The translations under genes were made by a program, and so were the position numbers. Below the pieces are notes generated by a model. The model did not search any database and was not told the DNA's origin. It worked only from the letters and a program-made list of their open reading frames with translations. From Candidatus Omnitrophota bacterium (lineage in GTDB: Bacteria; Omnitrophota; Omnitrophia; Omnitrophales; JACROU01): 64,000 nucleotides of DNA. Position 1 is the stretch's first letter. Each line of letters begins with the position of its first letter. Positions 9,335 to 27,693 of the stretch are shown here, piece by piece. The stretch is from assembly GCA_016214265.1 (NCBI GenBank), contig JACROU010000034.1:5878-69877 (forward strand), in the 5' to 3' direction.

Positions 9335-9838
9335 TCAAGAAAGCTCAGCAATTTGTTTTGGCGTCATCAACCACTCTAAAGTGGCGCATTGATCGTATTT
9401 CAAATCATAGACGGTCAGTTTGGCAAGACCGGCCTTTTTCATATTGATGGAACCTGCCTTATTCCCCAACATCAGCATTGAAATAAGCCCGCTCAAATAA
9501 GGCTCGTGACCAACGATCAGAATGCTCTTTCGAGATTTGTAGTGCTTATCAATCTCAGAAACAAGCCTCTTGGGATCCCCCCCGATGGAAGCCAGGTTCT
9601 CGGTCACGGCAACTTTCTTTTTTAAATCAAAGATGTTGGCAACAATATCGGCCGTTTGCCGTGTTCGAAGATATGGACTGGTTAGAATCAAATCGAATGA
9701 AAGGTCCATCGCAAGCATCCCCTTCGCGACGTCTTTCATTTTCTGAATACCTTCATCCGTTAACGGACGCTGGCTATCGGTTCTGAATTTCGGACCGGGA
9801 TTCTCCGCAATGGCATGACGTAAAATGAAAAGTTCCAT
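9335..9838 (-). CDS. sixA: phosphohistidine phosphatase SixA (histidine phosphatase superfamily)
   Basis: MELFILRHAIAE... (RHG/RHA motif) and ...IVGHEP... motif; start set at internal Met. Confidence 0.7.
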   Translation of the reverse strand: MELFILRHAIAENPGPKFRTDSQRPLTDEGIQKMKDVAKGMLAMDLSFDLILTSPYLRTRQTADIVANIFDLKKKVAVTENLASIGGDPKRLVSEIDKHYKSRKSILIVGHEPYLSGLISMLMLGNKAGSINMKKAGLAKLTVYDLKYDQCATLEWLMTPKQIAELS

Positions 9839-9916
9839 AGTATGATATGATTTACCAAGGGTTAACACAAATCGAAGGCATCTGGTACCTTCTGTAAAAT
9901 ATCACGGATCGCTGTT

Positions 9917-11320: not shown

Positions 11321-13348
11321 TTCTTTCGGGAGCGTCCTGCCGAGCTGTTCGTTCCTATCATAAGCTTTCTGACATAAATATTCCTGCACGCGAAACCTCC
11401 GGTGTTCCACGGACTCCAGTTTTTGATAAGTTCCATCCGGCCGCAGCCGCCACGATTTCTGATTATCTTTAAAATATAACTTCACTAGTTCAGAAAGATA
11501 ACTTTTAATTTCCTTATGTTCCACCGGGAACATAATTTCGATACGACGATCCAGATTTCTCGGCATCCAGTCCGCGCTGGAAAGATACAGCTCATCATCG
11601 CCGCCGTTTGAGAAATAAAATATCCGGGCATGCTCCAGAAACATATCTACCACACTCACCACTTCGATATTTTCACTCAATCCCTTCACTCCAGGCCGGA
11701 GGCAGCATGTGCCACGAATATTCAATTTGATCTGGCAGCCGGCCTGCGAAGCTTTGTAAAGCGCTTCGATAATTTCTTCATCCACAAGAGAATTCATTTT
11801 CGCGATAATCATACTTGGTTTTTCTTTGCTCCGGATTTCTTCGCGTCGAATCAGGCGCAGCAGCCGGCGCTTCAGTCCGTAAGGCGCAATCTCGATTTTT
11901 GCGAGCGCTGTCGGCTCAGAATAGCCGGTAATCACATTAAAAAATGCCGACACATCACTCGCCAGATCTTCATTGGCTGAAAAAAGTCCCACATCCGAAT
12001 AAAGCTGGGCCGTTTTCTCATTATAATTTCCGGTCGACAGATGAACGTATCGCTTGATGCCTTCACTCTCGCGCCTCACCACCAGACAAGCCTTGGAGTG
12101 CGTTTTCAGGCCGGTCACTCCGTACAGCACGCTGGCGCCCGAAATTTCAAGCCGCCGCGCCCATTTGATATTTTTTTCTTCGTCGAAACGGGCCTTCAAT
12201 TCTACGAGTGCTGTCACTCGCTTTCCGTTTTCGGCCGCGCGGGCCAGCGCGTCCACAATCGTCGATTCAGCTCCCGTTCGATAGAGGGTCATCTTAATCG
12301 CCAGCACATCCGGATCATCCGCCGCCTCATTCACGAAACGAATCACTGGATCAAAAGAATCGTACGGGAGCACCAAGCAAACGTCTTTTTTTTTGAGAAG
12401 TTCCCAAACGTTATCAGCATTCTCAAAATCGGAAACCGGCCGGGGATTCCATGAGGGGCGCTTTAATTCAGGGAAGTTTGGCTGATATGCCAACGAAGAA
12501 AGGGTTTTCAGATCAAACCATGTATCGACATGGCAAATGTCATGCTCTGAAATTTTTAACTCTCTCTTCAAAAATTGAACGGCGTTTTCCGATGCCAAGA
12601 CTTCAAGCCGAACCACCGCACTTTGTCTGCGCATCCTGAGCGCTTCGGTCATAACTTTGGCAAAATCCTCGTCCTTTTCCTCATCAATCGTCATTTCGGC
12701 ACCGCGTGTCAGGCGCATTAGGCCCTGGCTTTTAATCTCGCAGCCGATGAACAGTTCCTGCGCAAAGGCCATCACCACATCCTCCAACAGAACGAACTGA
12801 TATCCGCTGTCGGCGGGAAGAGCGATAATCCGCGAAAAATTTTTTGGCATTTCGATCACGGCGAATTCTTCACCCGACTTTTGGCCGGGTTTTAAAACAC
12901 CGATCAAAACGTAAAGGCTAAGACTGGCCAAAGCAGGAACCGGCTTGTCTTCAGAAAGAGCAATTGGCGTCAGCACTGGGAATAATTCTTTTCTGAAAAA
13001 GTTTTTGAGATATTCCCTCTGCCGGTCACTAAGCGCTTCGCGCGGAACGCGGACAATCCCCGACTTCTCTAACTCCGGGATCATCACATTTTTGAAATAC
13101 TGATTTTCTTTCTCAATAATTTCGTAGGCCTGTTCAACGATTTTCCGGGTCATCGGATTGCCGCCATTTTCTAAACTGGCGACACGCACCATAAAAAACT
13201 CGTCAAAATTGGAGCTCGCGATCCCCATAAATTTAAGCTGTTCCAGAAGTGGGTTTGACGGATCCATCGCTTCGGCCAAAACCCGGGCATTAAATTCCAG
13301 CCACGACAATTCTCGATTGAAAAATTTTTCGCTCATAGTCACACCCAC
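11297..13348 (-). CDS. ppk: polyphosphate kinase 1
   Basis: 683 aa; FNRELSWLEFNARVL N-terminus, two PLD-like HKD regions, typical PPK1 length. Confidence 0.9.
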   Translation of the reverse strand: MGVTMSEKFFNRELSWLEFNARVLAEAMDPSNPLLEQLKFMGIASSNFDEFFMVRVASLENGGNPMTRKIVEQAYEIIEKENQYFKNVMIPELEKSGIVRVPREALSDRQREYLKNFFRKELFPVLTPIALSEDKPVPALASLSLYVLIGVLKPGQKSGEEFAVIEMPKNFSRIIALPADSGYQFVLLEDVVMAFAQELFIGCEIKSQGLMRLTRGAEMTIDEEKDEDFAKVMTEALRMRRQSAVVRLEVLASENAVQFLKRELKISEHDICHVDTWFDLKTLSSLAYQPNFPELKRPSWNPRPVSDFENADNVWELLKKKDVCLVLPYDSFDPVIRFVNEAADDPDVLAIKMTLYRTGAESTIVDALARAAENGKRVTALVELKARFDEEKNIKWARRLEISGASVLYGVTGLKTHSKACLVVRRESEGIKRYVHLSTGNYNEKTAQLYSDVGLFSANEDLASDVSAFFNVITGYSEPTALAKIEIAPYGLKRRLLRLIRREEIRSKEKPSMIIAKMNSLVDEEIIEALYKASQAGCQIKLNIRGTCCLRPGVKGLSENIEVVSVVDMFLEHARIFYFSNGGDDELYLSSADWMPRNLDRRIEIMFPVEHKEIKSYLSELVKLYFKDNQKSWRLRPDGTYQKLESVEHRRFRVQEYLCQKAYDRNEQLGRTLPKELKPQKPK

Positions 13349-14907
13349 TATTTGGGGGGAGCCCCTTGTTTTAATGTAATTGTCGAACCAAAATTTTCGG
13401 CAAACATATCCCCTTTTTTCGATAGCCCGTCCCGTTCGATAGAAATATCGCCCGCCTCTTCCGGCACCCAGAGAATAAAATTGTCCCCCGACCGCTCCAG
13501 CTGAAAGTTCCGGATTTTTTGCGTATGACTTTTATCGATAGCATCGGCAACCCGAAGAATCGCGGCAAGCTTCGAAACGATTGCTCGGTCCGATTTGGTG
13601 AGCGACATGTACGCCACATGCGTTGTTTGCGGAGTGGTGCGGCGATGATAGCGAACCACATTCGAAATGATATTTTTATCGGACTTACGCAGTCCGAAAA
13701 TATCAGCCGCATCAATCAAATAACTGGAATGTTTGTGATGCCCTTGAGGCGAAATATACATCCCGATATCGTGCAGAATCGCGGCAGCCTCAAGTAGCAG
13801 ACGGTCTTTCGCCCCAAGCCCGTGTTCCTCTTTCAAATTATCGAACAGCTTAATCGCGTTCGCTGCGACGCACAGGGCGTGCGGGCCGTCGTACATATAT
13901 TTCCGTCCCAATCGCCGGCAGGAGCTTATCACCTGTTTCGATACGTCAGTGCGCTTGAATCCGGATAAAATTTGCGCCTGTTCCAGCAGCAGTCCTTCGC
14001 GAATGCTGACCATCGGCACCACAATATTTTCGGTTCTTGTTTCAGCCAAAAAGTTGGCGTAAATCAGAAGTGATGGATAAAGCGTCTCGGCTTCCGAATA
14101 CGCAATTCCGTATTTATCCGAAATTTCATCGGCAGGCATTTTGGCGAGGGAATCAATAAATTTCAGAAACGTGGTCTTTTCAAGGATGACATAATCGCCT
14201 TCGATTTTTTCAGTGAGCTGGCGCGAAACAAAACGCATGTCGCCGCCGACCGCAATAAAAGTATTGATATCACCCAGATTATACTCCCGTCCGGCGTATT
14301 GCGCGATGTCACGAATACTGCGTTTCAACACACGCTGCATCTGCGCGGATTCCGTTTTGCCGGCAATAGCCTGTTCGGGCAGTCGAATCGATCCAATCGA
14401 AAGGGTTCGGGTCAGTTCCACCTCGCCCTTGCTGAAAATAATCATTTCTGTACTGCCGGAACCAACTTCGATAATCAGGCAGCTCTTGTTTTGAAAATCA
14501 AATTTTTCGCCCAGCGCGTGCTCCACCGCTATCAATTCCAAACGGTTTTCTTCCGGTCCCTCGATGACCTCAACGTCGATCCCGGTCCGTACAAAAACTT
14601 GATCGATAAAATTCTCCCGGTTCGCCGCCTCGCGCACGGCACTAGTCGCGATCGCGTGAACATTTTTAACCCCATAACTATCGAGGACCGATTTAAAATT
14701 TTTGAGCACCACGATCCCCTCACGAATCACGGCATTAGAAATACGTCCCGTCGTAAAAACATCTTTGCCAAACGCCACGGGTTTTTGTAAATTTTCAAGA
14801 TGCCGCATTTCAAATTTGGGTCCGATTTCAGCAATCACCATGCGAATTGCGCTAGAGCCGATGTCGATGACGGCTACGGTTTGTTTTTGAATCGTTGGTT
14901 CAGGCAT
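13348..14907 (-). CDS. ppx: exopolyphosphatase / guanosine pentaphosphate phosphohydrolase (Ppx/GppA) with C-terminal HD domain
   Basis: AVIDIGSSAIRMVIAE (actin-like ATPase fold N-term), HD domain motifs (HDIGMYISP); start at internal Met. Confidence 0.85.
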   Translation of the reverse strand: MPEPTIQKQTVAVIDIGSSAIRMVIAEIGPKFEMRHLENLQKPVAFGKDVFTTGRISNAVIREGIVVLKNFKSVLDSYGVKNVHAIATSAVREAANRENFIDQVFVRTGIDVEVIEGPEENRLELIAVEHALGEKFDFQNKSCLIIEVGSGSTEMIIFSKGEVELTRTLSIGSIRLPEQAIAGKTESAQMQRVLKRSIRDIAQYAGREYNLGDINTFIAVGGDMRFVSRQLTEKIEGDYVILEKTTFLKFIDSLAKMPADEISDKYGIAYSEAETLYPSLLIYANFLAETRTENIVVPMVSIREGLLLEQAQILSGFKRTDVSKQVISSCRRLGRKYMYDGPHALCVAANAIKLFDNLKEEHGLGAKDRLLLEAAAILHDIGMYISPQGHHKHSSYLIDAADIFGLRKSDKNIISNVVRYHRRTTPQTTHVAYMSLTKSDRAIVSKLAAILRVADAIDKSHTQKIRNFQLERSGDNFILWVPEEAGDISIERDGLSKKGDMFAENFGSTITLKQGAPPK

Positions 14908-15886
14908 CGCATTCCTCCTGTGCCAATTTAGCCGCACCCATCACAATCGAATAATCCTTCAGCTTCGCCGCGACCACTTTCACATTTTTTACAAGCCCCG
15001 ACATCGCGTAGTGCCGCATCGACTCATCAGCCTCAGGAATGATAATTTTCCCCATCGCTTCTACCACACCGCCGCCCAGCACAATTATTTCGGGATTCAG
15101 AACATTTACAATATTTGCCATCGCCATGCCCAGCAATTTCGCTTTATTCTTCACCAAAGTTTTTATCGCCGCATCTCCGGCTTTAATCGCAGCGGCCAAC
15201 GCACCGCTTTTTATTTTCGAAATGTCGGTTCCGGACATTTTCAGCAGTTTGGGCGCGCGATTTTTCAGCGCGAGCATAGCCGCTTCCGCCGCAATAGCGG
15301 GCCGGCCAATTTCCGTTTCAAGACAGCCGCGATTGCCGCATCCGCACACCGGCCCGAGAGGATCCACCAGGGTATGCCCAATTTCACCGGCGGCTCCCAT
15401 AGAACCCTGATAAAGTTTTCCATTCAAAATAAGTGCGCCGCCAATCCCTGTCCCGAGAAAAATGCCGATGACATGCGAATACCCGCGCGCCGCACCAAAA
15501 TGGAATTCACCGTACAATCCAACATTCACATCATTTTCGAGAGTCACCGGAACATCAAAATATTTACTGAGTTTTTTTCCGAGAGAAAGATTATTAAGGA
15601 ATGAAATGTTGGGAGATGAAACAACAACGCCTTCTTTGACGTCGATAATTCCGGGACATCCGACGCCGATTGCCGCAACGCTCTCGAGCCCGACTTTAGC
15701 CCCATTCAGCACTTGAAGAACGCTATCAACAATAGCACCGAAGAAATACTTTTCGCCCTTGTCGACCTGCACCTTGGTTTTGAGCGTTGAAATCAACCGG
15801 AACTTCTTATCCAATAGTCCGGTCAACATTTTGGTTCCACCCAAGTCAATGCCTATGAAGTACTTACGCTTCTTCTTTTTGGCCAT
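14900..15886 (-). CDS. ROK-family sugar kinase (glucokinase-like)
   Basis: 328 aa; IGIDLGGTK N-terminus, ROK zinc motif (CGCGNRGCLE). Confidence 0.75.
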   Translation of the reverse strand: MAKKKKRKYFIGIDLGGTKMLTGLLDKKFRLISTLKTKVQVDKGEKYFFGAIVDSVLQVLNGAKVGLESVAAIGVGCPGIIDVKEGVVVSSPNISFLNNLSLGKKLSKYFDVPVTLENDVNVGLYGEFHFGAARGYSHVIGIFLGTGIGGALILNGKLYQGSMGAAGEIGHTLVDPLGPVCGCGNRGCLETEIGRPAIAAEAAMLALKNRAPKLLKMSGTDISKIKSGALAAAIKAGDAAIKTLVKNKAKLLGMAMANIVNVLNPEIIVLGGGVVEAMGKIIIPEADESMRHYAMSGLVKNVKVVAAKLKDYSIVMGAAKLAQEECDA

Positions 15887-15946
15887 GAAACACCCCTGGG
15901 TTATTGACAGGGCAGTCCTTGCCCCTATGTAGGAAGGATACTTGAT

Positions 15947-16612
15947 TTACTGTTGGGTTTCAATATGATGGCGGACTTCCTTGCCCTGCTTCATATAGAT
16001 GACGTCTTCGGCAATGTTGTTGGCCAGATCAGCGATGCGCTCCAGATTGTGACCGATAATAATCAGACTCATCCCGGTTTTTACGATGGAAGGATCTTTC
16101 TGCATCAATTCCACAATTTGCTGATAAATTTCGTCGTTATAATCGTCCACTTCATCGTCCCGTTTCAACACACTTCGAGCAAGCTCCACATCCCCGTTCA
16201 CGAAAGCGTCGAGAGCGTCCTTGAGCATTTTCAGCGCCGCCTGCGCCATTTCGGGAAGATGAATATGGGTTTTCAACACAGGCTCTTTCATCACGATCAA
16301 AGAACGTTCCGCAATATTGACAGCATGGTCGCCCATCCGCTCGAGGTCCGTATTAATTTTCAAGATCGACGTCACCACACGCAAATCAACCGCCATCGGC
16401 TGTCCCAACGCAATCAGACTATGCCCCATCTCATCGATTTCAATTTCAAGCTGATTGATAACTTTATCACCGGCCACCACCTGATTAGCCAGAATACTAT
16501 CGCGTTTGAGAAGGGCCTGAATCGCCTTCTCAACCGTTTCTTCCACGAGCAAACCCATGCGAAGAAGTCTCTGTTTCAATTCTTTCAAGTCTTCATGAAA
16601 ATGTCGTTCCAT
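15947..16612 (-). CDS. phoU: phosphate transport system regulator PhoU
   Basis: Two PhoU repeats (E/DxxxD motifs: ...DDEVDDYNDEIY...); start set at internal Met to avoid 80-nt overlap with pstB. Confidence 0.8.
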   Translation of the reverse strand: MERHFHEDLKELKQRLLRMGLLVEETVEKAIQALLKRDSILANQVVAGDKVINQLEIEIDEMGHSLIALGQPMAVDLRVVTSILKINTDLERMGDHAVNIAERSLIVMKEPVLKTHIHLPEMAQAALKMLKDALDAFVNGDVELARSVLKRDDEVDDYNDEIYQQIVELMQKDPSIVKTGMSLIIIGHNLERIADLANNIAEDVIYMKQGKEVRHHIETQQ

Positions 16613-16622
16613 CAGTTTCTCC

Positions 16623-17447
16623 TCATCCAAATCGACCGGTGATATAATCTTCTGTTTCTTTTTTATCGGGTGTTGTAAAAATCTTTTTCGTCTCGCCGTG
16701 TTCAACCAAAAGTCCCAAATAAAAATATCCGGTAAAATCGCTGACCCGCGCCGCCTGCTGCATATTATGCGTCACAATCACGATTGTGTAATTTTTCTTG
16801 AGCTCGTGAATCAGTTCTTCAATCTTTGCCGTGGAAATCGGATCCAATGCCGAAGCGGGTTCGTCCATCAGCACAATTTCAGGATTCACCGCCAGAGCCC
16901 GTGCAATGCAAATCCGCTGCTGCTGGCCGCCGGAAAGTTCCAGCGCAGGCTTTTCCAGGCGGTCCTTAACTTCGTCCCAGATCGCGGACTTCTTCAGACT
17001 TTCCTCCACGATCCCCTCGAGCATTGATTTATTTTTGATTCCCTGAAGCCGGGGACCGTAAGCCACATTATCAAAAATAGTTTTCGGAAACGGATTCGAC
17101 TTTTGAAACACCATACCCACGATGCGTCGCAGCGCCACGACATTGATCTCGGAACCGTAAATATTTACCCCGTCAATAATCACCGATCCCTCAATCCGCG
17201 CTCCGGGAAGCGTATCATTCATTCGATTGAGTGTTCTTAAAAAAGTGGATTTTCCACATCCTGACGGCCCGATCAGAGCGGTCACCGCTTTTTTTTGAAT
17301 GTCGAGTGTGACACTTTTCAAAGCATGCACGCTGGAGTAATAGACATTCAAATCCTTAACCTTAATACTGATCGACGAATTATGTTTGTCCATTGGCACC
17401 GCCTTCTGAGCGTGAAAAATCTTTTCTTCCACCGGTACATTCATCAT
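16623..17447 (-). CDS. pstB: phosphate ABC transporter ATP-binding protein PstB
   Basis: Walker [10 protein letters not shown], signature LSGGQQQR, Walker B LMDEP; PstB-typical length. Confidence 0.9.
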
Positions 17448-18406
17448 ATAGTTACCAATCCTTGTTTCTTGCGGAAGTACATTCGAAATAAAACAGCCAC
17501 TAAGTTCAACAAAAACGTCAGTGAAATCAAGACCAGCGTAGTTCCATACTGAATCGGAAGTGTCTTTTCTGCGTCAACCGACTGCGTGGCCATGATGTAG
17601 ATGTGATATGAAAGATCCATAAATTGATCGAAGGGATTGACCATCGGGATAAAACCAAACAGATTCACAACCGGCAAATGCGGCAAAAAATAGGCGACAC
17701 CCGTAAACAGAATCGGCGCTGTCTCGCCTGCCCCGCGGCTCACCGCCAAAATCGCACCCGTTAAAATGCCGCCGCGCGCCTGAGGGATCACCACCCGCCA
17801 AATCGTCTGCCACTTCGTCGCCCCAAGCGCTAGTGAAGCCGCGCGATGACTTTGGGGAACGCTAATCAACGCTTCTTCCGTTGAAACAATAATCACGGGC
17901 AGCACCAGTATCGCCAGCGTCGCCGCCGCCCAAAGCATGCAAGGCTGGCCGAACAGAAGACCGGTTTTGAGCACTTGATCCAGATTCCGGCCAACAAAAA
18001 GAACAAAAAATCCGAGACCGAAAAGCCCAAAAACAATTGATGGAACTCCGGCCAGATTGTTAACCGCGGCTCGGATTAGGCGAAAAACAATTCCATCTCC
18101 GGCATACTCCACCAAATAAATCGCAGCGGCCACACCAAGCGGCAGCGCCATTACCACCATCAACACTGTTTTAGCAATAGCCCCAAAAATGCATGGGAAA
18201 ATTCCGCCTTGAGTCATGCCATCGGTGGGCGCCAGTAATAGAAATGACCCTGTAACGACCCCCGCACCATTTTTTACGATAATCCACAGAATCAAAAAGA
18301 TCGCTATCAGCGGAACGACAGCAAAAATACGCACCAGTCCGTTCATGAAGTTTTCGGAAAGGTTGTCGTGTTTTACGGTGAGATTGGAAACGATGGATTC
18401 TCTCAT
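17444..18406 (-). CDS. pstA: phosphate ABC transporter permease PstA
   Basis: 320 aa polytopic membrane protein with ABC permease EAA-like loop; operon position. Confidence 0.8.
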
Positions 18407-18408
18407 AA

Positions 18409-19359
18409 TTACATTCTCAATTTCCGCCGCATTTTGTTGATCACAACTTCAGAACAAATATTCAGAACAAACGTCATCGTAAACAGAATCGCTCCCACGA
18501 GAAAAAGAACGTAGTAATGTTCACTGCCCTGGACCACCTCACCCATTTCGGCGGCGATATTCGCTGTCATAGTTCGAACGCTTGAGAACATATCCAACGT
18601 TACCAGCGCGGCGTTTCCCGTCGCCATCAGCACAATCATGGTCTCGCCCAGCGCACGGCCGAATCCCAAAAGCACGGCCGCTGAAATTCCAGAAACGGCG
18701 GCGGGCACCACCGTTTTCCAAATCGTCTGCCACTTCGTCGCACCCAAAGCGTAGGAAGCGTCGCGAAGTTCTTTGGGAATTGCCCGAAGCGCCTCTTCCA
18801 CCAGTGTGACGATAATTGGAAATGTCACAAGCGAAACGCCGAGCGCCCCTACAAAAGCATTCAACCGGAATTTAGTGTGAAACAAATCCTGAACAAATGT
18901 GGCGACAACTGCCAGCATCAAAAATCCGATCACGACGGAAGGAATGCCGGCCAGCAATTCTAGTGTGGGCTTCAACGTTTCCCTCACCCGCGCAGACGCA
19001 ATTTCGGACAGATAAATGCCGCAGCCTATACCGAAAACCGAGGAAATCACTGTCGCCGGAAATGCCACCAGAAAACTTCCGCAAACAAGCGGAACAATGG
19101 AATATTTTGGAACTTCAGAAACCGACTGCCACATGACTTTGAAAATATTTTTCTCGTCGTATGGGTCGTACACCCACTTGCCGATCAAATCCAGAGGGGA
19201 TACAGACTTAAATGTCAGCATCCCCTCTTTGAAGAGAAATAAGAAGATCAGCGAAATAAAAACAATCGAGGCAATCCCGGAAATAAAGAGGGCTTTTTCA
19301 ATCAGCCACTCGGCAGGATGATGATTTTTCCGGGTTAATTCTTGAGTGATATCCGTCAT
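18409..19359 (-). CDS. pstC: phosphate ABC transporter permease PstC
   Basis: 316 aa polytopic membrane permease, operon position between pstS and pstA. Confidence 0.8.
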   Translation of the reverse strand: MTDITQELTRKNHHPAEWLIEKALFISGIASIVFISLIFLFLFKEGMLTFKSVSPLDLIGKWVYDPYDEKNIFKVMWQSVSEVPKYSIVPLVCGSFLVAFPATVISSVFGIGCGIYLSEIASARVRETLKPTLELLAGIPSVVIGFLMLAVVATFVQDLFHTKFRLNAFVGALGVSLVTFPIIVTLVEEALRAIPKELRDASYALGATKWQTIWKTVVPAAVSGISAAVLLGFGRALGETMIVLMATGNAALVTLDMFSSVRTMTANIAAEMGEVVQGSEHYYVLFLVGAILFTMTFVLNICSEVVINKMRRKLRM

Positions 19360-19379
19360 GAACCTCTTATTAGTCCCCT

Positions 19380-20258
19380 CTATTTTACTTTCAATGGAAT
19401 ATAGCCGACTTCTTCCACAATTTTTTGTCCCTCAGGACTAAGAATCCAACTAAGATATTCTTTGATTTTCCCTTTCGGCTTGAAACCCGTGTACATATAA
19501 AGATAACGGGCTATGGGATAGTGCCCTGACCAAGCCGCTTCATAATCGGCTTTTCCCTCAACATTTAAAGGACTGACGGCTTGAGATTTGTCATCTTTTT
19601 TGATGGGAAGAATTTTCAGATTCGGCTGATTCAAAAAATAAGCGACACCGCCGTAGGCAATTCCGTTAGCATCTTTGCTGATCGCGTTAACCGATGCGCT
19701 GGTTCCCGGAACGGTCTGGCAATCCGCGGCGAAATCCTGATTTTTCAGGACCAGTTCTTTAAAAAACGCGTACGTTCCGCTGTTTGATTCACGAGAATAA
19801 CGGATAATTTCCGCGTTATTGCCGCCGACGTCTTTCCAGTTATTGATTCGCCCCGTGTAAATTCCCATCAATTGCTTCATCGTCAGTGATTGAACAGGAT
19901 TATCTTTATTCACGACAACCGCGATACTGTCCATTCCCACCTTAAACTCAGCTGGATAATATCCGGCCGACTTGGCCTGCTGAATTTCCTTTTCTTTGAT
20001 CGGACGGCTGGCATTGGCGATATCTGTCGTTCCGTTGATGAGTGCCGCAATACCAGTTCCTGAACCTCCGCCAGTTACCTGAATCGAAACATCAGGATTA
20101 TTCTTCATGTACAGCTCAGCCCAACGCTGACCCAAAATTACGATCGTGTCGGATCCTTTGACCGTGATGTTGTTGGCGGCAAACGCCACCGGGCTTGCGC
20201 ACATGATCCCAATCAAGGCAAGCGATAAAATTTTATTCCTGAGATTTTTCATTTTCAT
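19380..20258 (-). CDS. pstS: phosphate-binding periplasmic protein PstS
   Basis: 292 aa, signal peptide, ...VKGSDTIV...GGGSGTG... PstS-family motifs; strong RBS AGGAGAT. Confidence 0.85.
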   Translation of the reverse strand: MKMKNLRNKILSLALIGIMCASPVAFAANNITVKGSDTIVILGQRWAELYMKNNPDVSIQVTGGGSGTGIAALINGTTDIANASRPIKEKEIQQAKSAGYYPAEFKVGMDSIAVVVNKDNPVQSLTMKQLMGIYTGRINNWKDVGGNNAEIIRYSRESNSGTYAFFKELVLKNQDFAADCQTVPGTSASVNAISKDANGIAYGGVAYFLNQPNLKILPIKKDDKSQAVSPLNVEGKADYEAAWSGHYPIARYLYMYTGFKPKGKIKEYLSWILSPEGQKIVEEVGYIPLKVK

Positions 20259-20300
20259 ATCTCCTGTATTCTATTTTTGCTACGTAAACTCCAGTTTTAA

Positions 20301-20318
20301 TTAATGTAAAGTTTGTGT
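20301..20318 (-). promoter_or_regulatory. Pho-box-like element: exact 18-nt sequence TTAATGTAAAGTTTGTGT (plus strand) shared with the crcB upstream region; part of four TTtACa-like hexamers phased at 11 bp upstream of pstS
   Basis: Gene-orientation reading: aTTACAc-aaac-TTTACA-ttaat-TAAAAC-tggag-TTTACG, cores spaced exactly 11 bp; identical 18-mer recurs at 25221-25238. Confidence 0.45.
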
Positions 20319-20327
20319 AATGTTTGC

Positions 20328-21815
20328 TTAAAACTTCCACAAGAGATCAACCTGCAGACGCCGCTGTGTTTCGTCAATCACTCCGGCCGTCCCGGCATTT
20401 AAATTATCAACCAGATAGCCGGAGCAAGAAAAAATCAGGCTATCCGTTATGCAATAACTTAGTTTAAGCACACTACCCTGTTTGCCGGCGTAGCCATTAC
20501 CAAAATCGCTATCCGAGAAAGCACCAACAACCGCATTGGCGCCAATATAGCGATACTCATAACGCGCTTCCCAGTCACCCTTTTTGTTGACAGATCCCAA
20601 ACGTGTTCCCAAAGCCCACGCAAAATCGGAGTGCAAAATGGTTCCCCCCTGATTTCCAATGGGACTGGCGCCAACGTTATCCGCGATATCAACGAAGAAT
20701 CGTGTTGGAAATCCATAAGGATATATGGCAATTTCATTATAAGTTTCAACGACTTGAAATTCGCGGGTATCCAACTGAGAAGTAGGTCCGCTCACATTAG
20801 GGTTACCACGTGCAAGACTGGTACCGCCGAGTGTGAAATTATTGTTCTGCCCGTAGTTCATATAATTGTAGTAAGAAAAGGCGGTTAAAAAATCCACCGG
20901 CCGTTCCAGAAATGGCGTGTAAAAAACAGGATTCAAGCCCCCCTGAATGGCCCAGAGCTCGGAATCTCCAGTCGTGGCAGCATTCAACGAATTCGGAGAA
21001 GCCAGCGCCGAGCTCTCCATCAATACATATTGCCCCGCAAGGAGATAGCCTTTGAGATCAAAATTATCTGAATCGATCAAATTGACATTGATTTTTTCAT
21101 AAACGCCTTCTGGCTTCACATCACGGTCCCAAATAATTTCAGATGAACCTATCTCGAAGGGATTATTTGCTTTACCCGCCGTCACTTCCAATTTCTCAAC
21201 GGGACCTATTTTTGCCCAATTCGGCGTGTAGGTTGCATATGCCTTATCAAACCAGACATTTTTGTAATTAAACAAATTAGTCAAAGTTTGATTTGAGGAC
21301 GTTGGGTCCGTACTCGTTCCTCCCACTTGTCCATCAGCTGTTGTCAGCGAAAATCCCACTTTCATTTGATCACTGAAAGTTTTCTCAAAACCATATCGGA
21401 CACGAAAACGAAAACGGTTACGAGCATCGGTCTCACCGGGATTTCCACTCGTATAATCCTGACCGTCATAGCGCAGTCTCAAATCACCGCCAAATTTCAA
21501 ATCCTTCAGCCATTTACTTGCACCGCCAAGAGCTGTACTCAAGCGTTCGTTGAATTCCGTATCGCTCATGGGGGGAGTTGCTAGCCCTTGCGCTCCTTCA
21601 ACACTTGGAGGTGTCTGAGGGCCTTTGATTTCAAGAGAACGAATTTTCTCATCTTGTTTAACAACGGTCTGTTTCATTTCACCCAGTTCTTTTTTCAAGT
21701 CATCAACCACTTTGCTCAGCACAGCAACCTGGTCGACATCCGCCCAAGCTGTGGTCGAAAAAAGAACAGCGATTAATGAAAACGCTGCGATAACTCGATT
21801 AAATTTCATTGCCAT
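20328..21815 (-). CDS. outer-membrane porin-like beta-barrel with N-terminal coiled coil (DcaP-like / phosphate-porin candidate)
   Basis: 495 aa; signal peptide, coiled-coil heptads (LSKVVDDLKKELGEMKQTVVKQDEKIRSLE), beta-rich alternating pattern, C-terminal ...LLWKF aromatic end; sits between phoBR and pstS. Confidence 0.5.
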   Translation of the reverse strand: MAMKFNRVIAAFSLIAVLFSTTAWADVDQVAVLSKVVDDLKKELGEMKQTVVKQDEKIRSLEIKGPQTPPSVEGAQGLATPPMSDTEFNERLSTALGGASKWLKDLKFGGDLRLRYDGQDYTSGNPGETDARNRFRFRVRYGFEKTFSDQMKVGFSLTTADGQVGGTSTDPTSSNQTLTNLFNYKNVWFDKAYATYTPNWAKIGPVEKLEVTAGKANNPFEIGSSEIIWDRDVKPEGVYEKINVNLIDSDNFDLKGYLLAGQYVLMESSALASPNSLNAATTGDSELWAIQGGLNPVFYTPFLERPVDFLTAFSYYNYMNYGQNNNFTLGGTSLARGNPNVSGPTSQLDTREFQVVETYNEIAIYPYGFPTRFFVDIADNVGASPIGNQGGTILHSDFAWALGTRLGSVNKKGDWEARYEYRYIGANAVVGAFSDSDFGNGYAGKQGSVLKLSYCITDSLIFSCSGYLVDNLNAGTAGVIDETQRRLQVDLLWKF

Positions 21816-21932
21816 TTCCTCCTTGATTGATTTTTAATTACTTCAGAACTCTAGAGAAGTGTACAAATGCCGCGTCTTGAAAATATTAGGAACATGTAAA
21901 AAACGGGTAAATCCAGGACCAGAGCTCGAAAA

Positions 21933-23738
21933 TCAGGATATGGTCCTGGTTTGAGAGATTCGAAGGGTGAACGAAAACCGGGATCCTTTTCCTGCCATAC
22001 TTTCACAAGAAACTTTACCGCCGTGGGCTTCAATAATATGCTTCACGATGGAAAGGCCCAGACCCGTGCCGCCCTCTTGCCGCGAACGGGCCTTATCTAC
22101 GCGGTAAAATCGCTCAAAAACACGGGCAATTTCATCCTGAGGAATTCCAATTCCCGTGTCTTCAATAGATATCTTCAAAAAATCACCGGCCTTTTCCGCA
22201 TCGATAATAATATTTCCGCCATCCTGATTAAACTTGATGGCGTTATCGATTAAATTGACAAGCACCTGCTTCAATTTATCCCTATCCGCCAAAATACGTC
22301 GACCCAAACTTTCCGCGATTCGATTTTCGAGCTGAATTCTTTTTTTCTTGATAGCTGGATAAAGCACAGAAAGCACGGCATCCATTTCCTGCTTTAAATC
22401 CAGCGACTCCAACTGTAGCGGCGATTGTTTCGACTCGATTTTTGACAAATCCAGAAGATCATCAATCAATCGGGTCAGCCGATCCGCATCGTCTTCGATC
22501 CGTTTCAGAAAATCCGCGCTTTTCTCAGGATCCTTCGACGCTCCAGACCGTAACGTTTCTGCGAATCCTTTAATCGATGTCAAAGGAGTCCTGAGCTCGT
22601 GAGACACATTAGCGACAAAATCACGCCGCATATTCTCCAGCTTTTTAACTTCGGTCACATCCGACAAAACCAAAACTCCCCGGACATCCCCATTTTGTTT
22701 CTCAATTCCCACCGCGTTTACATTCAAAAATTTCTCTTCAAACCTCGCGATCTCAAGCACTTTTTTGACAATCCCCCCCGTTTTCATCGCCTCACTCATC
22801 ATTTCATCAATTTCAGGATTGCGAACCACTTCAAGAAGACCTCTGCCCAAAACCTGACTTTCTACAATACCAAAAACTTCTTCAGCACCAGGATTGACGG
22901 TCAGAACGCTTCTGTCTCCGTCAACTGCAACAATCCCCTCCGACATATTTTTCAGAATTGCCGAAAGTTTTGCTCTCTGGCCTTCGCTCTCCGAAATACG
23001 AAGCTTGAGTGCCTTTACCATTTCATTCATGGCATCGGCCAGAATTTTCAGCTCGTCCTCGGCATCAATATAAATTTTCTCGGACAAATCCCCGCGAGCG
23101 TATCGCGTAGCCGCACGAGTCATCACCGCAATTCTAGAGCTGACGCGTCCGCCCAACCACAAGGCACAGATGATGATAAAAAATATTCCGGCGGCGGTTC
23201 CAATCAATACAGGTTTTTCGACCGTAGAAAAAGTTCGACGAACTATAGCCAATGGCAGACTAGCCCGGAAAATTCCAACCACGGAGTGAGAATCTTTGAT
23301 GGGAAGGGCAACATAAAGGATGTTAGTCTTCAACGTTTTACTGAAACGCTCGCTCATCCCGATGCCCTTCTTAAGTGCCTCCTGAACCTCGGGCCGCTCA
23401 AGATGATTATCCATTTGCTGCAAAGCTTCCCAGGATTCCTCTGACTCACCCAAAACAAAGCCGTCCGCACGAATCACAGTCAGACGGGCATCAGAATCTT
23501 TGCCCAATTTATGAATTAACGAATGTATTTTGCGGCGGTCGCCCTCTTGAATGAGCGCGGGTGTGATAATATTTTCGATAAGATGCAAACGCACAATGAG
23601 CGATTGCTTAAGCTCAGCTCGGATTTGCTGACGAAGCGAAAACGATATGTAGGCACCGGTGGCGATGAACACCACCGCGAAGAGCGTCAAAAATGCAAAA
23701 GTAATTTTCCGGCCAAATTTTTTTCGGATGAAATTCAT
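21933..23738 (-). CDS. phoR: PhoR-like sensor histidine kinase (TM-periplasmic-TM, HAMP, PAS, HisKA, HATPase_c)
   Basis: H-box HELRTPLTSIKGF, G-boxes GGTGLGLSIVKHIIEAHGG; overlaps phoB by 4 nt. Confidence 0.75.
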   Translation of the reverse strand: MNFIRKKFGRKITFAFLTLFAVVFIATGAYISFSLRQQIRAELKQSLIVRLHLIENIITPALIQEGDRRKIHSLIHKLGKDSDARLTVIRADGFVLGESEESWEALQQMDNHLERPEVQEALKKGIGMSERFSKTLKTNILYVALPIKDSHSVVGIFRASLPLAIVRRTFSTVEKPVLIGTAAGIFFIIICALWLGGRVSSRIAVMTRAATRYARGDLSEKIYIDAEDELKILADAMNEMVKALKLRISESEGQRAKLSAILKNMSEGIVAVDGDRSVLTVNPGAEEVFGIVESQVLGRGLLEVVRNPEIDEMMSEAMKTGGIVKKVLEIARFEEKFLNVNAVGIEKQNGDVRGVLVLSDVTEVKKLENMRRDFVANVSHELRTPLTSIKGFAETLRSGASKDPEKSADFLKRIEDDADRLTRLIDDLLDLSKIESKQSPLQLESLDLKQEMDAVLSVLYPAIKKKRIQLENRIAESLGRRILADRDKLKQVLVNLIDNAIKFNQDGGNIIIDAEKAGDFLKISIEDTGIGIPQDEIARVFERFYRVDKARSRQEGGTGLGLSIVKHIIEAHGGKVSCESMAGKGSRFSFTLRISQTRTIS

Positions 23739-24427
23739 AATTCCTGGTCAAAACGGTAACCCACATTTTTAACCGTGACCAGCCTCTGGGCTTCTGCTTT
23801 AAGTTTTTTTCTGAGCTGTCCAATGTGCATGTCGATGGTGCGCGTTTCAATGTTGACCGATTGATCGTAACCCCAAGCGTGTTCAAGAAGAAACTCGCGC
23901 GAAAGCACACGCCCTCCAGCCTCGAGCAGCGCTTTCAGAAGATCGTATTCTTTCGAGGTCATCTCCACCGTTTTACCTTTCACACTGACGATATGCTTTT
24001 CGGTATCGATTTGAAGCATTCCCGATTTTAGAATTTTTGTTTTGGGTTTTTCATAATGACGGCGAAGCACTGCTTTGACGCGGGCTACAAGTTCGCGGGG
24101 ACTGAACGGCTTGGTCATGTAATCATCGGCGCCCAGCTCGAGGCCGACAATCTTATCTGCTTCCTGAGCTTTTGCGGTCAAAATAATGATGGGAATGTGA
24201 GCCGTTTTTTCATCCTGCTTGAGAATTTTGGTGATTTCAATTCCGTTCATGCCAGGAAGCATGAGGTCGAGCACAAGAAGATCCGGCTTTTGCCTGCGAG
24301 CCTGCTCCAGTCCGGAATCTCCTCGGGAAGACGCCAGCACGCGATAGCCCGCATCCTCGAGATTGTATTTCACCAGCTCGAGAATATTACTTTCGTCTTC
24401 GACCACTAAAATTGTTTCTTTTTTCAT
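23735..24427 (-). CDS. phoB: OmpR/PhoB-family response regulator
   Basis: 230 aa; receiver (ILVVEDE...DLLVLDLMLPGMNG) plus winged-helix output (VTVKNVGYRF). Confidence 0.8.
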   Translation of the reverse strand: MKKETILVVEDESNILELVKYNLEDAGYRVLASSRGDSGLEQARRQKPDLLVLDLMLPGMNGIEITKILKQDEKTAHIPIIILTAKAQEADKIVGLELGADDYMTKPFSPRELVARVKAVLRRHYEKPKTKILKSGMLQIDTEKHIVSVKGKTVEMTSKEYDLLKALLEAGGRVLSREFLLEHAWGYDQSVNIETRTIDMHIGQLRKKLKAEAQRLVTVKNVGYRFDQEL

Positions 24428-24461
24428 TAAAATCCTCTTATTCCCATCTCAAGATGGGGGA

Positions 24462-24797
24462 TTATTTTTTTGCCCGATACATAATGACATTCACTTTTTC
24501 CAGCGTAATCAATCCCTCCTGAACCATCTCGTCAAGTTTCGGCAGGAATTTGCTGATTTTCTCCTCACTGTCCACAATTTCAATAATGATGGGCAAATCT
24601 TCGGACAACCGGAGCAATTTGGCCGTATGCATGTGACTTTTGCAGCCGAAGCCCAAGAACCCTTTAATAGCAGTTGCGCCGGCCAGTCCTTCCTTTTTCG
24701 CCAAGTGAACAATCGCCTCGTAAAGAGGCTGGCCCTTCCATTGATCCGCTTCTCCGATGAATATGCGTAACAGCTTCCCATCTGCTGGAATTTTCAT
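24462..24797 (-). CDS. DUF190 (PII-like) protein, typical partner of CrcB fluoride channels
   Basis: 111 aa; gene order crcB-DUF190 is a recurrent fluoride-regulon pair. Confidence 0.6.
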   Translation of the reverse strand: MKIPADGKLLRIFIGEADQWKGQPLYEAIVHLAKKEGLAGATAIKGFLGFGCKSHMHTAKLLRLSEDLPIIIEIVDSEEKISKFLPKLDEMVQEGLITLEKVNVIMYRAKK

Positions 24798-24811
24798 AGA
24801 CCTTTTCTCCT

Positions 24812-25186
24812 TTAAATCAGTTTAGCGATTAACATTCCGACCCAAAAAATAACGAACCCGGCAATGACGCTGATCACAACATTCAAGAACGCGCGCAACA
24901 CTTCGCCGTCGCGCATCAGATTGAATGTTTCCAGAATAAAAGTAGAAAAGGTGGTGAATGCTCCGCAGAATCCGATCATCAGGAGCACTTTCAGATTCGG
25001 GCCCAGCAGGAACTTTTCGTCCGCCAGGGTGCTGAGAAATCCAATCAGGAAACATCCTGAAAGATTCACCGCAAGCGTACCGTACGGAAAATCGGTTCCG
25101 AAGATCCGGTAAATGACGCCCGCCAAGGCATATCGGGCGAAAGTTCCGGTCAATCCTCCGAGAGCCAGACTCAACCACTTAAGCAT
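24812..25186 (-). CDS. crcB: fluoride ion channel CrcB/Fluc
   Basis: 124 aa, four TM helices, GxxGxxTTFSTF-like motif (FCGAFTTFSTF). Confidence 0.8.
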   Translation of the reverse strand: MLKWLSLALGGLTGTFARYALAGVIYRIFGTDFPYGTLAVNLSGCFLIGFLSTLADEKFLLGPNLKVLLMIGFCGAFTTFSTFILETFNLMRDGEVLRAFLNVVISVIAGFVIFWVGMLIAKLI

Positions 25187-25220
25187 TAGACTATCCTTCC
25201 GGGGTAAGATCAGCGTGAGG

Positions 25221-25238
25221 TTAATGTAAAGTTTGTGT
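25221..25238 (-). promoter_or_regulatory. second copy of exact 18-nt TTAATGTAAAGTTTGTGT element, within four 11-bp-phased TtACa-like repeats upstream of crcB
   Basis: Gene orientation: TTGACA-caaac-TTTACA-ttaac-cTCACG-ctgatc-TTACCC then RBS GGAAGGA and ATG; cores spaced 11 bp. Confidence 0.45.
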
Positions 25239-25242
25239 CAAG

Positions 25243-25857
25243 TTACGGCTTTGGCAAATTCACTTTCTTCCCTTGAGACAAGAAACAAAGAAAAGCGATA
25301 ACAAGGGCCACAATACTTAATAGTATTCCGGCAAAGGCGATAAGCATAATTTGATTCGGCTTTTTGTTGATCGCGTGAATTTCTCCAGAAGGCAGGCCAT
25401 CCAGCTTTTCCGGAAACTGGATTGCGTTTGAGGATAAAACATCGGAAGATTCAAATTGTTCGTTGACGATGCTCCCCTCAATGGTTCCTTCAACGCGGAA
25501 GATGTATTTTCCAGTACGGGTTGGCAAAAAATATCCCGCGTACGCGCCAGGTTCTCCGGATAACGGTTTCAGCTCGACGGAGAGCGTTTTGTCAGCGAAA
25601 ATGATCGTGCCTTTCAGCGATTGTTCAAGCCCGAAAATCGGACGGTTGTTCCGAGCGGAAGGATTTTTGATCAGAAACACAGCCGCATTCATTTGACCAG
25701 CAAAAGCCGGATCAGTCAGAAAGCCGACGACAAATTCATATTTTCCAGCAACTTTTCGATGTTCGAGAGCATAAGCCGATTGCTGAAAATAAACGAATGA
25801 TGCAAGCATCAAGAAAACGAAAACAATAAGTGACTTGAGATTAAATTCGAACTTCAC
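25243..25857 (-). CDS. hypothetical exported protein with C-terminal membrane anchor
   Basis: 204 aa; N-terminal signal peptide, beta-rich middle, C-terminal hydrophobic helix (IMLIAFAGILLSIVALVIAFLCFL); no family recognised. Confidence 0.4.
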   Translation of the reverse strand: MKFEFNLKSLIVFVFLMLASFVYFQQSAYALEHRKVAGKYEFVVGFLTDPAFAGQMNAAVFLIKNPSARNNRPIFGLEQSLKGTIIFADKTLSVELKPLSGEPGAYAGYFLPTRTGKYIFRVEGTIEGSIVNEQFESSDVLSSNAIQFPEKLDGLPSGEIHAINKKPNQIMLIAFAGILLSIVALVIAFLCFLSQGKKVNLPKP

Positions 25858-25873
25858 GCGACACCTCCTGTAA

Positions 25874-26875
25874 TTAAACTGATTCCAAAATATATTGAAA
25901 AATAAGCGGCGCGACTATCGTAGCATCCGATTCGATGATGAATCTCGGCGTCTTGGCATCCAATTTTCCCCACGTGATTTTTTCATTAGGAACCGCGCCC
26001 GAATAGGAACCGTACGAAGTAGTGGAATCGGAAATCTGGCAAAAATAGCCCCACAGCTTGCACTCCTCGCGCAAGTCCTGAATAATCAAAGGAACCACAC
26101 AAATCGGAAAATCTCCGGAAATGCCCCCCGCGATTTGAAAAAAACCAATCGTTTCTTTTATGGAATTGGCCCGGTACCAATCGATGAGCGCGGCCATTTG
26201 TTCCAACCCGGATTTAACGACCTGATAATTCGAGACTTCTCCGCGAATCACATTTGCCACAAAAATATTGCCGAGCGTGGAATCCTCCCAGCCTGGCGTA
26301 AAAATGGGGAGATTTTTTTCACAGGCGGCAACCAACCATGAATCTGCCGGATCGATTTGATAATCCGCCTTGATCTCGCCGCTTTTAATCAGCTGGTACA
26401 TGTACTCGTACGGAAAAAAACGCTGTTTCGTCTGATCCGCTTTTCGCCACAGTTTCAGCACTTTTCGTTCGATGCGTCGCATCGCCTCTTCTTCCGGAAT
26501 ACAGGTATCGGTCACCCGGTTCAACCCTGCTTCACGAAGCGCCAGCTCTTCCTCAGCCGTCAGATTCCGGTAATTCGGAACACGCTTGTAATGGTCATGC
26601 GCGACGAGATTGAAAATATCTTCTTCGAGATTGGCCCCGGTACAGCAAATCCCGTGAACTTTATCCTGACGAATCATCTCGGCCAGCGTGATACCCAGCT
26701 CGGCCGTACTCATCGCACCGCCCAACGTCACAAACATTTTCCCGCCTTTTTTCAAGTGGCTGATGTAAGCCTCAGCCGCGTCGACTATAACCGCAGCATT
26801 AAAATGCCGGAAATTTTTTTTGATAAAATCCTTAATTAAGATATTCTTTTTGCCCATAGCCGTCTGAGAAATCAT
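25874..26875 (-). CDS. deoxyhypusine synthase-like protein (DHS family, bacterial homologue)
   Basis: 334 aa from internal Met (MISQTAMGKK...); NAD-binding Rossmann-like layout and motifs reminiscent of DHS (GGAMSTAELG; GICCTGANLEED). Confidence 0.6.
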   Translation of the reverse strand: MISQTAMGKKNILIKDFIKKNFRHFNAAVIVDAAEAYISHLKKGGKMFVTLGGAMSTAELGITLAEMIRQDKVHGICCTGANLEEDIFNLVAHDHYKRVPNYRNLTAEEELALREAGLNRVTDTCIPEEEAMRRIERKVLKLWRKADQTKQRFFPYEYMYQLIKSGEIKADYQIDPADSWLVAACEKNLPIFTPGWEDSTLGNIFVANVIRGEVSNYQVVKSGLEQMAALIDWYRANSIKETIGFFQIAGGISGDFPICVVPLIIQDLREECKLWGYFCQISDSTTSYGSYSGAVPNEKITWGKLDAKTPRFIIESDATIVAPLIFQYILESV

Positions 26876-27693
26876 AGTCTCACCTTTACCATTTTGAGTA
26901 CTGCCAGAATGACAAGCACTGTGCCAAAAACACATATTATTGTAGCCCCTGTCGGGAAATCAAGGAAGTAAGAAATCGTGATCCCCAAAAAGCTCACAAC
27001 CGTTCCGGTGGCCCAACCTAACAAAAGACGGGTGGAAAGTTTCGTCGCAAATAAAATCGCGGCTACTGCCGGAACAATCAGGTACGAAAACACGAGCAGA
27101 ACGCCAGCAATTTGAACCGAACTTGTGACCACAACACCGAACGTGAGATAAAAAACCAAATCCCACAACTTCACATTCATCCCCCGCTGAAATGCCAGCA
27201 CAGGCTTCGTCGAAATAAGAATAAATATCCGCCGGAAATACCAGTGAAACACCCCGAGCAGGCTGTAAAGCAGTAGAATTTTAATAATTTGCGGCACACT
27301 CACGAGCAGGACATTCCCGATCAGCATCGAGCGGATGTGTTCGTCGCCCTCTGCGGAGCGGCTCAAAATCATAATCGCTGCAGCCGCCGCCATCGCGTAC
27401 ACGATTCCGATAATCGCCTCTTGCGGAATTTTTTCATGCCGCGTACGCGTAATCGAAAATATGAGCGCGCCGAGCACGGTCGCCAAAAGCGAAAACCAGT
27501 ACGTAACACTGCTATGAAGTTCGTAGCCGAACAAAATTGCGCAAGTTGCCCCAAGCGCGGCAATCTGAGCGAGCGCAAGATCCACGAAAATAACCTTGCG
27601 CTCAATCACATGAATTCCTAGATAAACATGAATACCAGTGAGAATCAAGCACGCCAGAAGCGGCTTCCACATAATCAGGAAAAAATCATTCAT
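26872..27693 (-). CDS. znuB: ABC-3 family metal (Zn/Mn) ABC transporter permease (ZnuB/TroCD-like)
   Basis: 273 aa, ~8 TM helices, typical ZnuB length and hydrophobicity pattern; adjacent to ZnuA-like binding protein. Confidence 0.7.
   Translation of the reverse strand: MNDFFLIMWKPLLACLILTGIHVYLGIHVIERKVIFVDLALAQIAALGATCAILFGYELHSSVTYWFSLLATVLGALIFSITRTRHEKIPQEAIIGIVYAMAAAAAIMILSRSAEGDEHIRSMLIGNVLLVSVPQIIKILLLYSLLGVFHWYFRRIFILISTKPVLAFQRGMNVKLWDLVFYLTFGVVVTSSVQIAGVLLVFSYLIVPAVAAILFATKLSTRLLLGWATGTVVSFLGITISYFLDFPTGATIICVFGTVLVILAVLKMVKVRL

Follow-up and report, generated by a model that had tools for sequence, protein, structure and literature searches.

The 64,000-nt stretch of Candidatus Omnitrophota DNA analysed here (the window; G+C content of 47%, ~95% coding) carries three arrays of short direct repeats, located upstream of pstS, of an outer-membrane porin gene and of the fluoride exporter gene crcB. 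We interpret these arrays, with a probability of about 0.85, as PHO boxes, that is, as predicted operators of the phosphorylated form of the PhoB/PhoP-type response regulator encoded at 23735-24427, the partner of which would be the histidine kinase encoded at 21933-23738. PHO boxes in general consist of 11-nt direct-repeat units (PMC4415409). In the three arrays as well as in related loci we found at least two direct repeats of a 6-7-nt core at 11-bp periodicity, lying in sense orientation upstream of phosphate-starvation genes (3 of 3 arrays in the window, 76 of 76 repeat pairs in the relatives), and a PhoR/PhoB-type system is encoded with such a box in front of its own operon. All relevant genes of the window are on the minus strand, and hexamers and spacers are given below in gene orientation.

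Four-repeat arrays upstream of pstS, the porin gene and crcB

The three minus-strand arrays share one layout, in which four hexamers at 11-bp phase are followed, after 9 nt, by a TAnnnT hexamer. The pstS array (20283-20321) reads ATTACA (20321-20316), TTTACA (20310-20305), TAAAAC (20299-20294) and TTTACG (20288-20283), with the spacers caaac, ttaat and tggag; the 9-nt spacer tagcaaaaa then leads to the −10-like hexamer TAGAAT (20268-20273). The initial annotation had described repeat cores starting exactly 11 bp apart in this region, and all four hexamers read as it had stated. The porin array (21873-21911) consists of TTTACC (21911-21906), TTTACA (21900-21895), CTAATA (21889-21884) and AAGACG (21878-21873), with the spacers cgttt, tgttc and ttttc, the 9-nt spacer cggcatttg and the predicted porin −10 hexamer TACACT (21858-21863), which leaves a leader of ~35-40 nt ahead of the ATG at 21815 or 21809. 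Only the first two of these hexamers, TTTACC-N5-TTTACA, had been noticed before; they were confirmed, and the array was found to go on with the two phased hexamers CTAATA and AAGACG. Upstream of crcB, from which a shared 18-mer had been reported, the copy is itself a four-hexamer array (25203-25241): TTGACA (25241-25236), TTTACA (25230-25225), CTCACG (25219-25214) and CTTACC (25208-25203), with the spacers caaac, ttaac and ctgat, the 9-nt spacer ccggaagga and the −10-like hexamer TAGTCT (25188-25193).

A search of both strands of the 64 kb (128 kb in all) for the pair TTTACA-N5-TTTACA, allowing up to one mismatch, gave three matches, compared with 0.2 on average in Markov simulations. Each of the three is in intergenic DNA (~5% of the window), in sense orientation and 39-80 nt before a start codon.

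The array in related loci

An alignment of porin homologues retrieved 80 loci, of which L001-L065 were treated as Omnitrophota and L066-L080 as more distant, mostly Verrucomicrobiota. The gene order porin-pstSCAB-phoU is conserved in the retrieved loci, the porin gene adjoining pstS in most of them, and phoB-phoR is frequently encoded a short way upstream. When the sequences upstream of 64 Omnitrophota porin genes were analysed, TTACA (P ~1e-24) and TTTAC (P ~1e-20) were the 5-mers with the strongest enrichment apart from the Shine-Dalgarno sequence AGGAG. Among the distances from one TTAC to the next, a spike of 30 cases stood out at exactly 11 nt, where neighbouring distances had 0-2, and weaker echoes occurred at 22 and 33 nt. 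The pair is present in 40 of the 64 regions, and those that have it conserve the whole layout of repeats 1-4, 9 nt and a −10 box, including columns that were not used for anchoring. The anchored consensus of the 40 regions is cTTTACAC..AcTTTACAt..cC.TCAta.a..cCTGACAc...t.TT.TAtaaT, which gives cTTTACAc for repeats 1 and 2, nTCAyn for repeat 3 and yTGACA for repeat 4. In 17 of 49 relatives the region upstream of pstS shows a second layout, in which 21 nt separate the pair from TAnAaT; this would correspond to an internal pstS promoter.

When the 65 Omnitrophota loci (692 kb) were searched for the pair with at most one mismatch, 76 were found, where ~2 would be expected by scaling the simulated rate of the window. 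Every one of the 76 is on the gene strand of porin and pst, and in 52 cases the gene that follows directly is porin, pstS or phoB. Among the remaining pairs, several precede a small open reading frame ahead of the porin gene (L011:5777-6001, L044:114-341, L047:5573-5935 and L048:5741-5980); the window has no such frame between its pair and the porin gene.

The closest relative, L084, encodes a porin of 73% identity. Its porin upstream region reads TTTACA caggt TTTACT caatc CTCATA ttttc TTGACG cccagtttt TACAAT, and its pstS upstream region reads TTTACA tagac TTTACA cgggg TAAACC cggtt TTTACG cagtaacta TAAATT; compared with the window, all four hexamers are kept at both promoters and the spacers have diverged. 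L081 has a pair before the porin gene and none before pstS. In L085 (69% porin identity) no pair was found upstream of the porin gene, the porin-pstS gap is short and the upstream gene is a different one. The lack of a pair before pstS in L081 and the short gap in L085 indicate that the internal pstS promoter is optional. A metagenome scan with the PhoB protein returned just generic OmpR-family loci (L086-L165, at most 51% identity), which were unusable for footprinting.

A 58-nt matrix built from the relatives alone ranked the window sites at the top, with 38.4 bits for the porin array, 25.2 for crcB and 19.7 for pstS, the fourth-best position scoring 1.3. The part of the matrix that was not used for anchoring (repeats 3 and 4, spacer and −10) was significant on its own at each site: the fraction of window positions scoring as high was 7.8e-6 for porin, which is also the window's best site for this downstream part, 3.8e-4 for crcB and 3e-3 for pstS. 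Taken together, the 11-nt spike, the layout of the 40 regions, the uniform strand of the pairs and the conservation in L084 support the suggestion of the initial annotation that these are phased direct-repeat operators of the PhoB/PhoP type.

The regulator, its kinase and the phoB-phoR operon

The OmpR-family response regulator of the window (23735-24427) has TIGR02154 PhoB as its best match. The kinase (21933-23738) comprises Cache-like, HAMP, PAS, HisKA and HATPase domains, the layout of the Firmicutes PhoR/PnpS kinases, and passes the PnpS model NF046044 with 429 bits against a cut-off of 400. The initial annotation had placed a cognate phoB-phoR pair next to the arrays; this holds well for the kinase and less well for the regulator, the PhoB match of which is under its cut-off. 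The closest solved relatives of the regulator are RegX3 (the best, E 1e-52), MtrA and the receiver domain of B. subtilis PhoP.

The recognition helix of the regulator, ETRTIDMHIGQLRKK, is typical of Omnitrophota, where the regulators have the helix MHIGQLRKK (ETRTVDMHIGQLRKK) and the loci have TTTACA pairs and no GTAACA pairs. Among the 15 loci outside Omnitrophota, mostly Verrucomicrobiota, four have a PhoB-like regulator, with the helix THMRRLREK (DTRTVDTHMRRLREK); in 6 of the 15 a GTAACA-N5-GTAACA pair precedes porin, pstS or phoB (for example L073:5770-5786, L074:5750-5766 and L080:7225-7252), and no TTTACA pair was found in this group. The helices thus differ as RRLRE outside and GQLRK within Omnitrophota, and this covariation of regulator and site supports the predicted assignment of the arrays to the PhoB-like regulator.

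In the window the genes crcB, DUF190, phoB and phoR are separated by 14, 34 and −4 nt, and a terminator scan of 13000-27000 detected no minus-strand terminator within them. The 34-nt gap between DUF190 and phoB holds a small hairpin (24441-24460, CCCATCTTGAGATGGG) that has no U-tract on the minus strand. Just upstream of it is the promoter-like match ATGTCA-18-AATAAT (24490-24461), which could be a basal phoB promoter.

In L170, the PhoB of which is 76% identical, an orthologue of the 204-amino-acid protein encoded upstream of crcB in the window (36% identity, E 4e-42) is followed by an array, ATTACA cggat ATTACA ctgat ATGAAC gtgta TTTACA cgggtgttc TATTAT, and then by phoB-phoR; phoB stands directly behind the array, without crcB, and has a 26-nt leader with a ribosome-binding site. 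L167 (PhoB 86%) has TTGACA tacaa TTTACC tcagg GTAATC ttccc CTTACT before crcB, the stop of which overlaps the phoB start by 4 nt. L171 (CrcB 90%) has TTGACA caaac TTTACT ttaac TTCACG ccgcg CTTACT before crcB-DUF190, and DUF190 overlaps by 4 nt the start of a gene whose product begins with MKKETILVVEDE, i.e. PhoB. A pair lies directly upstream of 8 of the 26 phoB genes in the wider set; others follow phoU in the pst operon. Because arrays precede phoB or crcB-phoB in L170, L167 and L171, the gaps are short and no terminator intervenes, the crcB array is most likely the autoregulatory PHO box of a predicted crcB-DUF190-phoB-phoR operon, crcB (with or without DUF190) being placed between promoter and regulator in a sub-lineage. 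The copy reported earlier before crcB is thus not an oddity, and the relatives point to a promoter of the phoB-phoR operon.

Promoter layout and alternative explanations

In the porin promoter and the 40 relatives the −10 hexamer is placed, by sequence, 9 nt past the last repeat. By analogy with characterised PHO promoters, an array so positioned would cover about −60 to −22 and replace the −35 box, with the strong pair distal and the degenerate pair over the −35 region. The predicted transcription starts are near 21851 (porin), 20261 (pstS) and 25181 (crcB). Under phosphate limitation two phosphorylated regulator dimers would bind head-to-tail and cooperatively, the strong pair first, and the bound regulator would recruit RNA polymerase. 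At the porin array this would activate the porin-pstSCAB-phoU operon, at the pstS array an internal promoter, and at the crcB array the crcB-DUF190-phoB-phoR operon, resulting in positive autoregulation. From the sequence we infer that the regulator would bind, that it would act as an activator and where transcription would start.

Several observations do not fit this interpretation well and have to be set against it. Repeat 3 is weak in all three window arrays. The regulator scores 256 bits with TIGR02154, below the cut-off of 296, and the call of a Pho regulator rests on gene context and the kinase. Other OmpR-family regulators, such as KdpE, also bind TTTACA-like direct repeats (PMC3264566), so that the motif alone fails to identify the regulator. 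The spacing at two of the promoters is also difficult. At pstS, the translation signals come immediately after TAGAAT (20273-20268), namely the Shine-Dalgarno sequence AGGAG (20265-20261) and two ATG codons (20258 and 20252). At crcB, the ATG at 25186 comes one base after TAGTCT, and the 9-nt spacer ahead of this hexamer contains AAGGA (25199-25195), a conserved Shine-Dalgarno sequence. At the corresponding distance from repeat 4 of the crcB arrays, L171 has TAAATT, directly followed by ATG, and L167 has TTAACT, followed by 6 nt and ATG. Since the −10-like hexamer abuts the start codon, a Pho-dependent transcript starting 6-8 nt further on would begin at or inside the first codons. Either the pstS and crcB mRNAs would be leaderless or have very short leaders, or the layout derived from the porin promoters may not be transferable to pstS and crcB. 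Alternatively, read-through transcripts may be the main templates for translation of crcB and pstS, with the internal promoters serving the downstream genes. The pstS leader of L084 has a normal length of 22 nt, from which it follows that the compression of promoter and start codon is specific to the lineage of the window. As for the pstS start itself, it is probably the ATG at 20252, and a product of 290 amino acids is the pstS gene call in the near-identical strain L166.

The last misfit is the 18-mer TTAATGTAAAGTTTGTGT (in gene orientation ACACAAACTTTACATTAA), which the initial annotation had reported as shared exactly by the pstS and crcB upstream regions and which we recovered at both places, 20301-20318 and 25221-25238. 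It comprises the final 3 nt of repeat 1, the spacer after it, the whole of repeat 2 and another 4 nt. Two copies were seen in 0 of 100 shuffles. Were both sites drawn independently from the matrix of the relatives, an identity over 18 nt would have a probability of ~1.7e-5; site constraint alone, as estimated in this way, thus fails to explain the identity. Possible sources are a copied promoter segment or a narrow within-genome optimum.

An alternative that we regard as improbable is that the arrays serve another OmpR-family regulator, or serve mainly in repression, and that they are linked to phosphate by position only. Direct repeats phased at 11 bp occur throughout the OmpR family, the regulator is under the PhoB equivalog cut-off, and the crcB and pstS arrays overlap the translation-initiation region, where bound protein could block read-through transcripts. 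However, the regulator-kinase pair adjoins porin-pst in many relatives and has the same array before its own genes, its recognition helix covaries with the type of box between the two groups of loci, and the kinase passes a phosphate (PnpS) model. In addition, the lack of a −35 box, together with an array that ends 9 bp before the predicted −10, is the layout of an activated PHO promoter.

Still less probable is an origin of the 18-mer from a short intergenic repeat or mobile element, or from recent copying of a promoter segment, in which case it would be functionally uninformative. The probability of ~1.7e-5 and the crcB site of L171, which keeps 17 of the 18 nt, speak for such an origin. Nevertheless, a dispersed intergenic repeat would have many copies and flanking similarity; the window has two copies and no third even at 3 mismatches, and the identity ends exactly at 18 nt without a flanking element. 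Both copies are in register inside four-repeat arrays that differ in their other repeats, related genomes have arrays without identical spacers, and a copying event would be compatible with both copies being working operators.

We place at an equally low level the explanation that the hexamers are plain sigma-70 −35 boxes and the arrays tandem constitutive promoters: TTTACA is one mismatch from TTGACA, both resemble the −35 consensus, repeat 4 of the relatives is often exactly TTGACA, and repeats 2 and 4 are 16 bp apart, near promoter spacing, but the conserved −10 is 9 bp past repeat 4 and 31 (or 21) bp past repeat 2 and never 16-18 bp past a hexamer, none of the three arrays coincided with a promoter in a sigma-70 consensus scan of 13000-27000 (in which sites were no more numerous than in shuffles), −35 boxes do not follow a strict 11-bp phase with echoes at 22 and 33, and the pairs are confined to phosphate-related genes. 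Repeats 2 and 4 were also considered as a −35/−10 pair, given their 16-bp spacing; this was rejected, as repeat 4 of the window arrays lacks key −10 positions.

Comparison with known Pho systems

The arrays resemble most closely the B. subtilis PhoP box, with four 11-bp-phased hexamers on the coding strand before pstS and the regulator's own operon. The B. subtilis PHO box is described in PMC11870197, which cites Eder et al. 1999, as four TT(A/T/C)ACA-like repeats with 11-bp periodicity; measured against that description, repeats 1 and 2 of the arrays (TTTACA) fit and repeats 3 and 4 are degenerate. The pstS box of Lacticaseibacillus paracasei, confirmed by an electrophoretic mobility shift assay, begins with tttacacaatctttacattcaa (PMC11870197), which is nearly the same string as the pstS site of the window, ATTACAcaaacTTTACAttaat. 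Unlike Bacillus, the host is a Gram-negative-type member of the Planctomycetes-Verrucomicrobia-Chlamydiae (PVC) group, an outer-membrane porin gene heads the operon, and repeats 3 and 4, the degenerate promoter-proximal pair, follow a consensus of their own (nTCAyn, yTGACA).

With the E. coli PHO box the arrays share the tandem head-to-tail 11-bp units and, as predicted from the porin promoters, the position in place of the −35 box. The E. coli pstS promoter likewise comprises four repeats, in two boxes, and autoregulation of phoBR, which is proposed here for the window, is known in E. coli. In E. coli Pho promoters the last repeat ends ~10 bp before −10. The core differs: the E. coli-type core CTGTCAT was not found in the window arrays, and the consensus of the 40 relatives is TTTACA. 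The recognition helix of Omnitrophota has G-Q where the non-Omnitrophota loci have R-R; E. coli PhoB also has R-R there. The combination of TTTACA with G-Q versus GTAACA with R-R would be a clean case of a joint change of operator and recognition helix.

Control of a porin gene by a PHO box, tied to phosphate uptake, is known for E. coli PhoE and Pseudomonas OprP/OprO. Unlike these, the protein of the window (20328-21815) belongs to Pfam Porin_5 (PF16930) and not to the OmpC/PhoE or OprO/P families, and its earlier designation as phosphate-porin-like is not borne out at the level of family. Its sequence matches, at 100% identity, an annotated protein of a Candidatus Omnitrophica/Omnitrophota metagenome-assembled genome. 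The array upstream of its gene points to this Porin_5 outer-membrane protein as a putative phosphate-starvation porin.

A literature search returned no paper that connects PHO boxes with Omnitrophica, or crcB with the Pho regulon, and we know of no experimentally defined regulon in Omnitrophota, which are uncultivated. It is well supported by the comparisons made here that the arrays represent a familiar type of predicted operator, of a Bacillus-like TTTACA flavour, seen here for the first time in Omnitrophota. With what would be a textbook mechanism, its general interest is modest. The operator consensus cTTTACAc-N3-cTTTACAt, with the degenerate pair and a −10 9 bp on, provides a matrix for regulon prediction in Omnitrophota metagenome-assembled genomes.

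Only one element is unexpected, and it is a modest curiosity: crcB-DUF190 stands behind a predicted PHO box instead of a fluoride riboswitch. The same crcB-DUF190 pair occurs in fluoride riboswitch modules (RF01734): where it is unlinked to phoB, a canonical RF01734 aptamer was found in L172 (2875-2938, 52.8 bits) and L174 (2874-2962, 49.2 bits). Unlike in these modules, in the window, L166, L167 and L171 the genes stand between a PHO-box array and phoB-phoR, without a riboswitch. An Rfam scan of 19000-27000 in the window, with E up to 1, found no known RNA upstream of crcB, pstS or porin, and no RF01734 match was found upstream of crcB in L166, L167 or L171. In L173, crcB-DUF190 follows directly after the deoxyhypusine synthase gene, without a riboswitch and without phoB. 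A tentative and rather doubtful extension of these findings is that in the sub-lineage of the window, L166, L167 and L171 crcB (with or without DUF190) may have lost its fluoride riboswitch and come to lie behind the putative PHO-box promoter, and that fluoride export may be induced, together with the regulator, by phosphate starvation. If this were true, a rationale, on which we can only speculate, would be that scavenging of phosphate from fluoride-bearing minerals (e.g. fluorapatite) releases fluoride. The overlap of −10 with the ribosome-binding site and start of crcB could then mean that read-through and Pho-dependent transcripts differ in the translation of crcB.

Neighbouring genes

The remaining genes of the region are likewise on the minus strand. 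Downstream of the porin gene are pstS (19380-20258, TIGR02136), pstC (18409-19359) and pstA (17444-18406), both assigned by Pfam, and pstB (16623-17447) and phoU (15947-16705), both assigned by NCBIfam. Next after phoU, in the same orientation and separated by short gaps only, is a polyphosphate cluster (11297-15886) that consists of genes for a ROK-family kinase (14900-15886, NCBIfam) and of ppx (13348-14937, NCBIfam) and ppk (11297-13348, Pfam); L081 has the same order, and the cluster may be co-transcribed with the pst operon. Beyond phoB are the DUF190 gene (24462-24797, Pfam), crcB (24812-25186, PF02537), the gene for the 204-amino-acid protein (25243-25857) and a deoxyhypusine synthase gene (25874-26935, Pfam). 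The 204-amino-acid protein, encoded at 4288-4911 in L170, has no Pfam or NCBIfam family and is found directly upstream of the array of the phoB operon in both genomes, with ZnuA/ABC-3 metal-transporter genes upstream of it in both. In L081 (a 542-kb contig) a protein of 3623 amino acids without a Pfam match is encoded directly upstream of the porin PHO box (L081:1-9868).

The phoR stop codon is contained in a hairpin with a 9-bp stem (21913-21949, minus strand, CCAGGACCA...TGGTCCTGG; −16.6 kcal/mol, z −1.9), which extends to right before repeat 1 of the porin array and is followed by a T-rich stretch. This hairpin may be a weak terminator or an insulator; as a terminator it was not compelling, given its stem length, energy and z score.

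A pair with 2 mismatches, TTTACC-N5-TTAACA, is present on the plus strand at 9851-9867, within the intergenic region 9839-9916. Two divergent genes flank this region, one for a His_Phos_1 phosphatase (9335-9838, minus strand) and one of the CYTH-CHAD type (9917-11320, plus strand), and ppk is adjacent. The pair had no score with the full matrix, and we keep it as a weak candidate for a PHO box only.

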